A stretch of 64,000 nt of DNA from Eledone cirrhosa (Eukaryota), in assembly GCA_964016885.1 (NCBI GenBank), contig OZ024758.1, positions 1,364,001 through 1,428,000 on the forward strand, written 5' to 3'. Each line of letters starts with the position of its first letter. Position 1 is the first letter of the stretch. A program made the position numbers and the translations under genes. A model generated the notes under the pieces. That model was not told the origin of the DNA and ran no database searches. It saw nothing but the letters and a program-made list of their open reading frames with translations. Below are positions 5,869-54,501 of this stretch, piece by piece.

Positions 5869-6068
5869 NNNNNNNNNNNNNNNNNNNNNNNNNNNNNNNN
5901 NNNNNNNNNNNNNNNNNNNNNNNNNNNNNNNNNNNNNNNNNNNNNNNNNNNNNNNNNNNNNNNNNNNNNNNNNNNNNNNNNNNNNNNNNNNNNNNNNNNN
6001 NNNNNNNNNNNNNNNNNNNNNNNNNNNNNNNNNNNNNNNNNNNNNNNNNNNNNNNNNNNNNNNNNNNN
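5869..6068. other. Assembly gap (200 N)
   Basis: Run of N. Confidence 1.
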
Positions 6069-15569: not shown

Positions 15570-16261
15570 AGGAAAGAAAAAAGAAAGAAAGGAAGAAAAA
15601 AGTAAGAAAGAAAGTAAAATGTAAGAAAAAATAAAGAAAGATTAAAAGAAACCAAGCAAAAAAGCAACAAAAAAAGAAAGGTAGGAACAAAAAAAAACAA
15701 CGAAAGAATTAATGCAGAATCCACAGAGAAAGGTTCAATAATAAATAGAGAGATAAAAGAATTTCCAGAAAATAGAAAAAAAAACTATTTTCAACATTAT
15801 GTAATATCAACATTACATAAGAGAACATCAAGAGGAGATATTTCCCTTTGAGCTAATATTAATATATTTATATAAAGTAATTCAAATGTAAATAATATTA
15901 TGTAAATATTCTCGTTGTAAAAGTACATGGAGCCTTCCAGCTTGACTTCTACATACAGCAATAGCTCGAATGTTTAACGTTATATTTCGCATTATTAATT
16001 CGTTATCAGGGGAAGATGTTTATGAGGATAATTTCATTTAATTATGGAAACGAATATCAACTTATTTAAAGTAAAGTGGACCAAGAATGTCCCTGCACAC
16101 ATATACACACACATTCTCACACACATTTATATATATATATTCATGTTAGTGAATGTTACCTAAATGCATTAAAATTGAAACGAACGAAGATGTTTTTAAA
16201 ATTATTTGAAGTATCATGTATCATATTTGGCTTTTCACTTGAATTAAATACATATATATAT

Positions 16262-16718
16262 ATTAAAAATTAGAATTGTAGCTCTGAAATAGCAATATAT
16301 ATATGGATGTAAATATAATGTATTTTGCAATACACTTTATGCTTAATTAAAAGCATTTTGAAGACCGTAAGCTATTGTTTTAAAGTAGTGACAAATTCAC
16401 TCACTTCGATCTCAGCAAACAGGAGGAGATAAGCCGACATGACATGTTTCGCTTTTGTTGAAGCTTATCAAGGCCAACTACCCCGCCCGTCCGCTGAGAT
16501 CAATGATGTTATATTCTTATAGAAATCTAGTAAATAATCAGGAGCTGATTATGCAGAGCGGTTGTTGGTCAGGCAGAAATTAAAAATTAGAATTGTAGCT
16601 CTGAAATAGCAATATATATATGGATGTAAATATAATGTATTTTGCAATACACTTTATGCTTAATTAAAAGCATTTTGAAGACCGTAAGCTATTGTTTTAA
16701 AGTAGTGACAAATTCACT
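16262..16718. repeat. Perfect 140-bp direct repeat (16262-16401 and 16579-16718) flanking a 177-bp insert
   Basis: The two copies appear identical base for base. Confidence 0.95.
16432..16475 (-). ncRNA. Type-I hammerhead ribozyme with U3-A8 core
   Basis: GGCC-TTGATAA-GCTT caacaa AAGC-GAAA-CAT gtc ATG-TC-GGCT, GUC triplet. A 9-bp distal helix is possible between 16408-16416 and 16493-16501. Confidence 0.75.
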
Positions 16719-16864: not shown

Positions 16865-17476
16865 AGCAATGTGAAGGGAAAGGCAAAGTTGATGAAATTG
16901 ACTCCAGTGTATTACTGGTTGCTATATTCTATCGACTCCGTAAGGATGAAAAGGCAAAGCTTACCTCTGCAGTATTTGAAACCAGAACGTAAAGGGCCGA
17001 AACTATATGCTGCAAAACATGTTATCATATGGTCGACTGATGCTGAAAATCCACCGAATCAGCATGTTCAATAATTGTTTCTACTTTTGGCACAAGGCCA
17101 GCAATTACCCAGTGCATTACTGGTACTTTATTTTATCGACCCCGTAAGGATGAAGGCAAAGTCAACCTCGGCGGGATTTGAACTCAGAATGGCAAGGGCC
17201 GTAACTCTATGCGTCAAAGCATGGCGTCCGACCCTCTACCGATATTGCCAATCCACAATGTTTCTGATTTAGACACAAGGCCAACAATTTTAGAGGAGGT
17301 AAAAGTCGACTAAATATCACCCCAATACATTACTGGTACTTTATTTTATCGACCAAGTAAGGTTGAAAGGCAAAGTTAGCCGCGTCAGGATTTGAACTCA
17401 GAATGTAAAGGGCCATAACTCTATACTACAAAGCATGGTGTCTGACCCTCTACCGATACTATCAATCCAGCCTCCC
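16865..17476 (-). mobile_element. Cluster of three head-to-tail Meta-type SINEs
   Basis: Copies at about 16865-17056, 17074-17256 and 17260-17476, all on the same strand. Confidence 0.85.
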
Positions 17477-17585
17477 CTCTCAGCATATTAGATAATAACA
17501 TCAAACCAATGCTGATTCGTGAGATATAACAATAGGGAGCATGTCCCACGTCAGCAACCAGTTCATAATTCTATGTGTAACAGGT

Positions 17586-19232
17586 ATGATGACATGTAGT
17601 GATATAATAGGAAATGGGAGAAATACACCTGAATGATGACATGTAGTGATATAATAGGAAATGGGAGAAATACACCTGAATGATGACATGTAGTGATATA
17701 ATAGGAAATGTGAGAATTACACCTGAATAATGACATGTAGTGATATAATGGGAAATGGGAGAATTACACCTGAATAATGACATGTAGTGATATAATAGGA
17801 AATGGGAGAAATACACCTGAATGATGACATGTAGTGATATAATAGGAAATGGGAGAAATACACCTGAATGATGACATGTAGTGATATAATAGGAAATGGG
17901 AGAATTACACCTGAATAATGACATGTAGTGATATAATAGGAAATGGGAGAAATACACCTGAATGATGACATGTAGTGATATAATAGGAAATGGGAGAAAT
18001 ACACCTGAATGATGACATGTAGTGATATAATAGTAAATGTGAGAATTACACCTGAATGATGACATGTAGTGATATAATAGCAAATGGGAGAAATACACTT
18101 GAATGATGACATGTAGTGATATAATAGGAAATGTGAGAAATACACCTGAATGATGACATGTAGTGATATAATAGCAAATGTGAGAAATACACCTGAATGA
18201 TGACATGTAGTGATATAATAGGAAATGTGAGAAATACACCTGGATGATGACATGTAGTGATATAATAGCAAATGGGAGAAATACACCTGAATGATGACAT
18301 GTAGTGATATAATAGCAAATGTGAGAAATACACCTGAATGATGACATGTAGTGATATAATAGCAAATGGGAAAAATACACCTGAATGATGACATGTAGTG
18401 ATATAATAGGACATGGGAGAAATACACCTGGATGATGACATGTAGTGATATAATAGCAAATGGGAGAAATACACCTGAATGATGACATGTAGTGATATAA
18501 TAGGAAATGGGAGAAATACACCTGGATGATGACATGTAGTGATATAATAGCAAATGGGAGAAATACATCTGAATGATGACATGTAGTGATATAATAGGAA
18601 ATGTGAGAAATACACCTGAATGATGACATGTAGTGATATAATAGGAAATGGGAGAAATACACCTGGATGATGACATGTAGTGATATAATAGGAAATGTGA
18701 GAAATACACCTGAATGATGACATGTAGTGATATAATAGCAAATGGGAGAAATACACCTGAATGATGACATGTAGTGATATAATAGGAAATGTGAGAAATA
18801 CATCTGAATGATGACATGTAGTGATATAATAGGAAATGGGAGAAATACACCTGAATGATGACATGTAGTGATATAATAGCAAAAGGGAGAAATACACCTG
18901 GATGATGACATGTAGTGATATAATAGGAAATGGGAGAAATACACCTGAATGATGACATGTAGTGATATAATAGGAAATGTGAGAAATACACCTGAATGAT
19001 GACATGTAGTGATATAATAGGAAATGGGAGAAATACACCTGGATGATGACATGTAGTGATATAATAGGAAATGGGAGAAATACACCTGAATGATGACATG
19101 TAGTGATATAATAGGAAATGGGAGAAATACACCTGGATGATGACATGTAGTGATATAATAGCAAATGGGAGAAATACACCTGAATGATGACATGTAGTGA
19201 TATAATAGGAAATGGAAGAAATACACCTGAAT
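17586..19232. repeat. Tandem satellite, 47-bp unit ATGATGACATGTAGTGATATAATAG(G/C)AAATG(G/T)GAGAAATACACCTG(A/G), about 35 copies
   Basis: Period of 47 read directly; explains three overlapping minus-strand ORFs. Confidence 0.97.
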
Positions 19233-19388
19233 CATCAACTTTCAATGAAAAGTAATCATTCCTAATTACTTCTCACCGAACAATCAATCTAAAGAATCAG
19301 TCATTTTTTAGAAAAAGTGGATTAGACATGATTCTATATTTTTAATTATAAGTATTCTACTAGATATATATTCATATTTCAATAGGTT

Positions 19389-19446
<58 letters not shown>

Positions 19447-21484: not shown

Positions 21485-22887
21485 GTGTGTGTGTGTGTGT
21501 ATGTATGTATATGCCAGGAGATCTTATAAACAGGCTTGAGTCTCGTCACTAGGATGTTCAACCACGTCACACATCTTTACATATAACTTCACATACCAAT
21601 CTACTTCAATTAAATGACATGAAAAAATAGCGTATAAGATAAATTGCAATTGTATATAACTTTAATTAATCTGAGAGTATACATTACAAGAAGACATGTT
21701 TTTTCAAGGCTGACTCGTCAGGTGTCAAAAGATTTTAAATTAATTTTATAGCATTTTTAAAAAAAATATTTTCACCATCATTACGATGAGAAAGATCATT
21801 ACATTGGTTGTAATGATAACATCAGTTTACTATCAATAAAATGATCATCATTGTCATAAGTAATCGAGGAAAACTATCATCGCCCACGCCACACTATCAT
21901 CGTTATCGTCATCTAAGCCATTAGCAACAATACCGTCATTATCTTCATTATTATTATTATCACCCACTTCCACCCCTACCTCCATCAACATCGTCACCAC
22001 CCCCTTAACACCATTATTATTAGCATCAGCATCACCATCATCATCATCAGCAGCAGCAGCAGCATTATCATCACCATCATCACCATCACCGCAACCAACA
22101 TCATTATCATCATCATTATCATCATCATCATCATCATAGCCATCATAATCACCATCATCATCATCACCCTCATCATCATCATCATCATAGCCATCATAAT
22201 CACCATCATCATCATCACCCTCATCATCATCATCACCATCATCACCATCACCATCATCAACATCTACATATTTACATATTCACCAGTATCATTACCACTA
22301 TCAACAAACTCGTTATCATATTATATCCACCACCACCACCATCACCCTCTTCATCTCTACTTGTGCCATTATCATCATCATCACAGCATCAACTTCACAA
22401 TAATTTTCTTAAATAGATTCTTTTTTAAATAAATCGATAGGGTTAAATAAATTCTTTGTATTTTTCTTGTTTTATTTTCTCTGTGTTTAATTTTATATTT
22501 TATTTGTTTTTGTTTTTGTTTTGTTTTTGTTTTTGTTTTTGTTTTTGTTTTGTTATATTTATTTTTACTTTCTTTCAAGTAGAGAGAAAGCATATTTAAG
22601 TTCTGATTGAATAGTTTTCTAATAAATAGAAAAGAAAAACTAAAAATATGTTACGTAGAATTGTAAAGAAATTTATAAATGTGTCCAATTAAAAATATAC
22701 ATATGTAACATAATTTTAACTGTGATCGATATATTTAGCTGCCAGTTATTTATGAATACGAGGCTGCGAATTGGTAGAGTTAGAATATTGGACAGAACGT
22801 CGGATAGGTTACTTTGCGGTCTTCGATTCGACTCTCCATATATGAACGTGTATATATATATATATATATATATATAAATACATATAT

Positions 22888-23008
22888 AGTTTTGCGAGGT
22901 TTTTGATATGAAATCGTGTGTCGAAACAAATATTGTTATACTTGGGGAGGGTCATTAGGTTATTAATTCTGGCAATATTACACAAATATGACCCTCCCCA
23001 AGTATAAC
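22888..23008 (-). mobile_element. Family-E element with fold-back
   Basis: 21-bp inverted arms GTTATACTTGGGGAGGGTCAT at 22935-22955 and 22988-23008. Confidence 0.65.
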
Positions 23009-54128: not shown

Positions 54129-54227
54129 ATTTGTTCTTATAATATATATATATATATATGATCTGTCCTACACCATCTTGTTTTGGGTGTAGGACAGAAC
54201 AAAGGAGAGACACAAAATAAAAATCTA

Positions 54228-54270
54228 GTCACTGAGGAGGTCACAGAATGCGTGACGAAAGAGTTTTGAC
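54228..54270 (+). ncRNA. Minimal hammerhead motif
   Basis: GTCA-CTGAGGA-G-GTCAC agaatgc GTGAC-GAAA-GAGT-TT-TGAC; preceded by a 13-bp hairpin at 54162-54198. Confidence 0.6.
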
Positions 54271-54470
54271 AATATATAGACAGCCATCCGGTTATTGAAC
54301 CAAACAACCACCCGCGGAAATTTATAATAAATTGAAGTAAAAACCAACAGGTGGGTGTGTTTTTGTTGGCATGACCCTCCCAAGGTGTAACAATATACGT
54401 TTCAACTCACGTTTACAGATAAGAAATCTTGCAAAACAAATTCAAAAACGAAGTATATATATGAATGTAT

Positions 54471-54501
<31 letters not shown>

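Follow-up and report, generated by a model that had tools for sequence, protein, structure and literature searches.

In the window, the 64,000-nt stretch of Eledone cirrhosa DNA analysed here, positions 16262-16718 are occupied by 1.44 head-to-tail units of a 317-bp monomer that carry a single hammerhead ribozyme. Sequence comparison within the window shows an exact match of 16262-16401 to 16579-16718 at a period of 317, and the identical 140-bp direct repeat described in an earlier note is thus confirmed. The outer insertion end coincides with an (AT)5 tract (16252..16261) that extends 2 nt into the element and would be the target that primed cDNA synthesis. It is followed by a partial unit, m178-317 of the monomer (16262..16401, minus strand), which forms the first copy of the 140-bp repeat and corresponds to the 3' region of the RNA with both start sites. 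The distal start site, m178-m186, lies at 16262..16270 (minus strand), where 16269 is m185, the commonest distal arm start; the start at m178 found in the window copy was seen again at the loci L164 and L165. The proximal start site, m211 (16295..16304, minus strand), is an internal (AT)5, able to pair with TA targets, and the 26-nt "tail" between the two sites (16269..16294, minus strand) is among the best conserved stretches in the subfamily alignment. The remainder of the monomer, m1-177 (16402..16578, minus strand), which had been described as an insert, contains the hammerhead and its upstream region; GC content is 44% in this 177-bp part and 24% in the 140-bp part. A type I hammerhead with an extended helix I was located at 16406..16503 (minus strand) by profile match, subfamily alignment and folding, and its palindromic helix III occupies 16437-16447 of the same strand. 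Upstream of it, 16514..16552 (minus strand) holds a TATA-like motif (16514-16522) and a small hairpin (16534-16552), both kept in the alignment of subfamilies A, A2 and B and partly in C, which could possibly constitute an internal promoter. The second copy of m178-317 (16579..16718, minus strand) completes the arm, which ends at m317 and abuts single-copy DNA.

The right flank of the window copy is single copy, the left flank belongs to an old repeat with copies 74-85% alike at other places, and the copy has neither an inverted arm nor a target duplication. There is no ATG frame of at least 30 aa inside the window element and no RT or GIY-YIG frame either, and the arrays of this monomer consist of monomers only; the element is therefore not an autonomous PLE. 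Elsewhere in the window, an assembly gap of 200 N lies at 5869-6068 and long minisatellites are present at about 17445-19400 (47-bp units) and from 3593 to about 4900 (19-bp units). The window also contains, at 54186-54480 and 22852-22955, pieces of a different hammerhead element (73-81% alike), flanked by TA and with C3-G8 in its core, of which the former looks like a fold-back; this element occurs also at L070, L093, L101 and L225.

When the 3.0-Gb assembly was searched with the 177-bp and the 140-bp parts separately, as the earlier note had advised, both proved to be multicopy and contiguous, and no single-locus repeat was found. The 177-bp part, supposed to be unique, gave 1330 candidates, the best 40 of which are all full length at 99-100%; the 140-bp part gave 516, the best 40 being full length at 100%, and is always joined to the 177-bp part in the same order. 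An unusually long target duplication is thereby refuted, and the suggested LTR-like repeats dissolve as well, the 140-bp repeat being part of the 317-bp unit and the overhang of a tandem. Likewise, an LTR retrozyme or an element with a target-site duplication was rejected: there is no unique internal part, the hammerhead is of type I and outside the 140-bp repeat, and no host DNA is duplicated. Mapping of the joined 317-bp unit on the 60 best loci revealed head-to-tail arrays, and arms reach 13 units or 4132 bp. Private substitutions among family units amount to 176 in 56,631 bp (0.31%), so the family is very young, which agrees with the proposed recent insertion, and identical 140-bp copies are often to be expected. 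Indeed, by our own arithmetic such identity of two copies would occur about 4 times in 10 at 0.31% divergence and is unremarkable.

Four subfamilies, A, A2, B and C, are 60-82% alike, with a unit of 310-321 bp in A, A2 and C, the three in which the period is readable. In a tree of 11 units, the split between A/A2 and B/C has a support of 95 (93 without the two core columns); the tree is unrooted, and with the root on the long branch leading to C, U3-A8 would be the derived state. Rare variants 293C, 294A and 265C did not identify a donor: 293C occurs in seven units of L142 and in one unit elsewhere, 294A marks a small sub-lineage, and 265C is present in other subfamilies too.

The minus-strand hammerhead with a U3-A8 core and a GUC triplet was recognised as described earlier, with U3 at 16471, A8 at 16466, G12 at 16450 and C17 at 16436, and its predicted cut site falls between 16436 and 16435. 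The Rfam model Hammerhead_HH9 matches at 16413-16490 with an E-value of 1.7e-5 and 31.1 bits, under the gathering score of 52, and at gathering level Rfam gives no match in the whole 64,000-nt window. The structural features of a type I hammerhead are all present, namely the 3-8 pair (in its U3-A8 variant), GAAA, NUH, three helices and an open helix I. Helix II has 4 bp, and helix III, of 4 bp with a loop of 3 nt, is almost perfectly palindromic, a palindrome being present here in all four subfamilies. A distal helix exists as had been proposed, but with 11 pairs scored across subfamilies instead of 9.

Genome-wide, the exact 30-base core pattern was found 562 times with U3-A8; any other base at position 3 gave a single match, C3-A8, a different base at position 8 beside U3 gave none, and neither U3-G8 nor C3-G8 occurred. 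UUGAUAA is present in all 83 full hammerheads of the first 60 loci. Among related subfamilies detected next to these loci, A2 has the U3-A8 core in 50 of 56 copies (a few of these rows are A-type), subfamily B has CUGAUGA in 33 of 38, two others being U3-G8, and subfamily C has C3-G8 in 7/7. Among 16 hand-picked hammerheads, which are related and represent four lineages, not 16 events, 97.9% of 382 cells are paired, as compared with 34-45% in slid controls; two-sided changes occur at 14 of 24 pairs, and at positions 3 and 8, 10 have a UA pair and 6 a CG pair. Judged from these sequences, the U3-A8 swap is compensatory, because C3-G8 is retained in sister subfamilies and the fold shows covariation. 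The double change had already been interpreted in this way, and its fixation in the family, with single mismatches almost absent, bears this out.

A compensatory U3-A8 core has already been published and is hence a known variant. Natural U3-A8 covariation is reported in PMC3088659 (Perreault et al. 2011), with in vitro activity cited, and about 1,300 U3-A8 hammerhead matches are given for Schistosoma PLEs in PMC4209133 (Cervera and de la Pena 2014). Three PLE families of the present genome also have U3 and A8; in this setting the earlier label of a rare variant thus does not apply. In one PLE family (L071, L084, L087 and L097), U3-A8 is accompanied by GCAA in place of GAAA in the copies viewed, and activity there is doubtful or unusual. 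The hammerheads of PMC3088659 and PMC4209133 show the same core covariation and are stated to be active in vitro, and those of PMC4209133 also have a palindromic helix III for dimer folding. In contrast to these published cases, U3-A8 is here fixed in a retrozyme clade, sister subfamilies have C3-G8 and helix I is long. Our search of the literature on U3-A8 and octopus Penelope hammerheads found nothing beyond the papers mentioned here. The C3-G8 and U3-A8 sister ribozymes offer a natural pair for comparison.

According to folding predictions, a monomer is 5.3 kcal/mol less stable in the hammerhead fold than in a fold with the core buried. In the tandem, a double hammerhead (-127.2 kcal/mol) is predicted to be more stable than two single ones (-116.8 kcal/mol), with an MFE of -129.3. 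These predicted energies fit the dimer model of PMC4209133, by which multimers would cleave and the monomer would be spared; with its one hammerhead, the window copy could not release a monomer alone. For the circle, the predicted fold has -77.3 as compared with -53.8 +/- 4.5 for 100 crude shuffles. A look through the sequencing runs listed found none of RNA.

Across the genome, arms of the family start beside TA tracts at two fixed sites 26 nt apart, m177-187 (mostly m185) and m211. The first sample comprised, in genome order, the 39 loci holding the first 100 matches listed of the core pattern, of which 37 were kept (L154, a duplicate of L153, and the long, incomplete array L175-176 were left out). 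It contains 27 fold-backs that combine a distal with a proximal arm, 6 proximal-only and 2 distal-only loci, 2 loci with one unclassifiable end and no pairing of like with like. Twenty further best-match loci, including the window, comprise 13 distal+proximal, 1 proximal+proximal and 6 one-armed copies. Two-armed loci with both ends classifiable therefore have one arm per site in 40/41 cases, and a TA tract adjoins 91 of the 98 classified outer ends (59/64 and 32/34). The inner arm ends are spread evenly over the unit, with 4 of 101 at m30-40 where 3.5 are expected, and the predicted cut site is passed by 88 of 101 arms (two of the 101 being pieces of less than 30 bp). Arms of one locus agree in 281 of 284 diagnostic-site comparisons, of which many concern the common allele and carry little weight. 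A search for target duplications at the window copy and 21 other loci gave just TA runs or chance words.

One arm from each start site is the "tail" signature of PLEs. According to PMC8557442 (Craig et al. 2021), PLEs form partial tandems, carry an inverted truncated copy and a 30-40-bp tail and are biased to microsatellites; a PLE protein studied in vitro in PMC11167929 (Frangieh et al. 2024) is reported to cut and extend both strands and to start at two sites within the RNA, between which the tail lies. The 317-bp family shows the traits of a PLE-mobilised element, i.e. two start sites with a tail, an inverted truncated arm and a microsatellite target. It shares with Neptune-type PLEs, as described in these sources, partial tandems, the inverted truncated arm, a tail at one end and microsatellite targets, as well as two internal RT starts with the hammerhead upstream of them. 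It differs from them in being a 317-bp element without coding frame, in its tail of 26 nt versus 30-40, and in the absence of sequence homology to the PLE ends tested. Furthermore, its start sites have short homology to the TA target, whereas PAc is described in PMC11167929 as starting without homology.

The family also has the organization of a non-LTR retrozyme, tandem units within 150-450 bp that each carry a type I hammerhead, the window copy holding one hammerhead; the 317-bp element is non-coding, has a GC content below 50% and lacks LTR organisation. Metazoan non-LTR retrozymes, as portrayed in PMC7229834 (Cervera and de la Pena 2020) and bioRxiv 10.64898/2026.07.22.740005 (Li, Clavereau and Pollet), are alike in their non-coding, low-GC tandem unit of 150-450 bp, in a type I hammerhead per unit and in coexisting PLEs; by comparison, the present family has a U3-A8 core. 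In the retrozyme literature that our search reached, partly as excerpts, we found no description of (TA)n targeting, two fixed starts or fold-back arrays. We consider the family a new, very young animal non-LTR retrozyme with a clear PLE-type insertion anatomy, which the supplements of the cited papers may list. The features flagged at first, a long target duplication and a rare core, are explained by known biology, and the value of the locus resides in the family.

Among 10,597 GIY-YIG candidates in this genome, the L091 family has a 938-codon open frame with RT and GIY-YIG matches and copies 97.8-98.7% alike, a U3-A8 hammerhead, and two fixed ends in (TA)n at a distance of 68 nt; the two ends of a locus are of different kinds in 4/4 fold-backs seen (L096, L100, L104 and L105). 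Moreover, the last seven bases of its distal end are those at the retrozyme distal start. This family is a candidate partner only. A CX4CxxC linker and cysteines inside GIY-YIG, reported for Neptune and Nematis but not for Hydra in PMC8557442, are present in 5 of 6 aligned PLE proteins, and a Hydra-type helper is disfavoured, just one of the six being without the Neptune-type linker. None of the PLE ends compared shows homology to the monomer: the scores of five PLE 3' ends resemble those of shuffles, and monomer matches beside 67 GIY-YIG loci (of the 10,597 candidates) are nested copies without terminal homology. A weak score against another hammerhead element (43 versus 26.4 +/- 3.8), due in part to TA runs, was set aside.

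The window locus is best explained, with a probability of roughly 0.8, as a one-armed, truncated insertion of a young, non-coding U3-A8 tandem element, likely a non-LTR retrozyme moved by a Neptune-type PLE. The minus strand would be transcribed and tandem units would cleave, probably as double hammerheads. A PLE reverse transcriptase-endonuclease would then nick both (TA)n strands and prime cDNA at two internal sites; from either site an arm would be extended round or along the RNA, and the arms would finally meet and join. At the window locus, only the distal arm would have survived, and since it copied 457 nt, the first 140 nt are present twice.

As to the template, a circular RNA is plausible, and a monomer circle is somewhat favoured; an uncleaved multimer is a tentative second candidate. 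A monomer circle predicts uniform arrays. For instance, three rare variants are found at L142 in all units that include their positions, and 7 of the 8 genome-wide matches of one of these lie in that arm; rare variants common to both arms occur at L023 (4/4), L181 (9/9) and L170 (3/3). On the other hand, arrays are heterogeneous at L162 (2/5), L174 (3/5), L150 (2/3) and L238 (one unit), variants recur with period three at L109, and units of 316 and 304 bp alternate at L175-176; such mixed and periodic arrays are not accounted for by a pure monomer circle. Read-through of the cut site fits an uncleaved or inactive ribozyme equally well as a circle. PMC11167929 reports that ribozyme cleavage is unnecessary for PLE insertion in vitro and that uncleaved RNA is the main substrate of PAc, and bioRxiv 10.64898/2026.07.22.740005 reports 8/9 Xenopus retrozyme dimers without cleavage in vitro. 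Probably both template routes and later local amplification contribute. The fully specified scheme, rolling-circle reverse transcription of circular retrozyme RNA by a Neptune-type PLE dimer on both TA strands with one arm per start site, falls just short of an even chance. If it is true, the arrays would be a direct genomic record of PLEs mobilising retrozymes in trans, with tandems made at insertion, and the dimer-favoured U3-A8 hammerhead would keep the monomer circle uncut.

The same ends, tail and fold-back geometry are seen in PLE stubs, and Xenopus retrozymes match PLE pLTRs according to bioRxiv 10.64898/2026.07.22.740005; the unit could thus be a detached terminal repeat (pseudo-LTR) of an unsampled autonomous PLE and the arrays truncated PLE ends. 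This is unlikely: none of the arms at 57 loci was seen to enter coding sequence, up to 13 repeats of the monomer are found in an arm, the PLE ends tested lack homology to it, and the divergent subfamilies hold a unit of 310-321 bp wherever the period is readable. Rather improbable too is that the PLE machinery inserts single units or stubs, the arrays arising later by unequal crossing over or slippage with a dispensable or dead ribozyme. This route is proposed in the same preprint and would account for the periodic variants of L109, the alternating unit lengths of L175-176 and the three rare variants in all units of L142, as if an aged unit had been amplified; however, each of the two fold-back arms runs through several units from a fixed start, rare variants are common to both (L023, L181, L170), inner ends are evenly spread, and compensatory changes accompany the conservation of the hammerhead.

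Next to no credence is due to the earlier reading as a unique 177-bp element flanked by LTRs or by a 140-bp target-site duplication, or to an assembly artefact: the two 140-bp copies are identical and no independent contig from eight sequencing runs spans the locus, but both parts are contiguous elsewhere in many copies, the right flank is single copy, and run X1 has a 347-bp contig that matches 16265-16611 apart from 2 differences, so that the repeat-insert-repeat order exists outside the assembly. A contig of run X2 covers 16408-16718, and since the X1 and X2 contigs both carry the unit order, it is not an artefact of this assembly. A contig of run X3 equals 15850-16278 without differences, with merely 17 letters in the element, too few for bridging. 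The joint of an empty allele was not found in the eight runs, whose cover of the right flank is nil except for less than one read depth in one run.

PLEs have been named a strong candidate for moving animal retrozymes (PMC7229834), and their role has been inferred from pLTR similarity (bioRxiv 10.64898/2026.07.22.740005); compared with what these papers state, the present family displays the PLE insertion signature itself. It offers a 317-nt template, two mapped starts, a simple target and a candidate open-frame helper, and with these in hand the question of PLEs and retrozymes could be tested in vitro.

Some arrays deserve mention in their own right. At eight loci (L030, L052, L054, L062, L115, L148, L159 and L177), retrozyme subfamilies and PLE ends lie one inside the TA flank of another, and the nesting shows TA tracts to be repeated landing sites. 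L153 and L154, 470 kb apart on C1, have the same junctions and represent a segmental duplication or a haplotype duplicate. Finally, at G000:C2:207686300-207701700 (L175, L176) units of 316 and 304 bp are mixed in an array of at least 15 kb, which appears as a retrozyme becoming a higher-order satellite.
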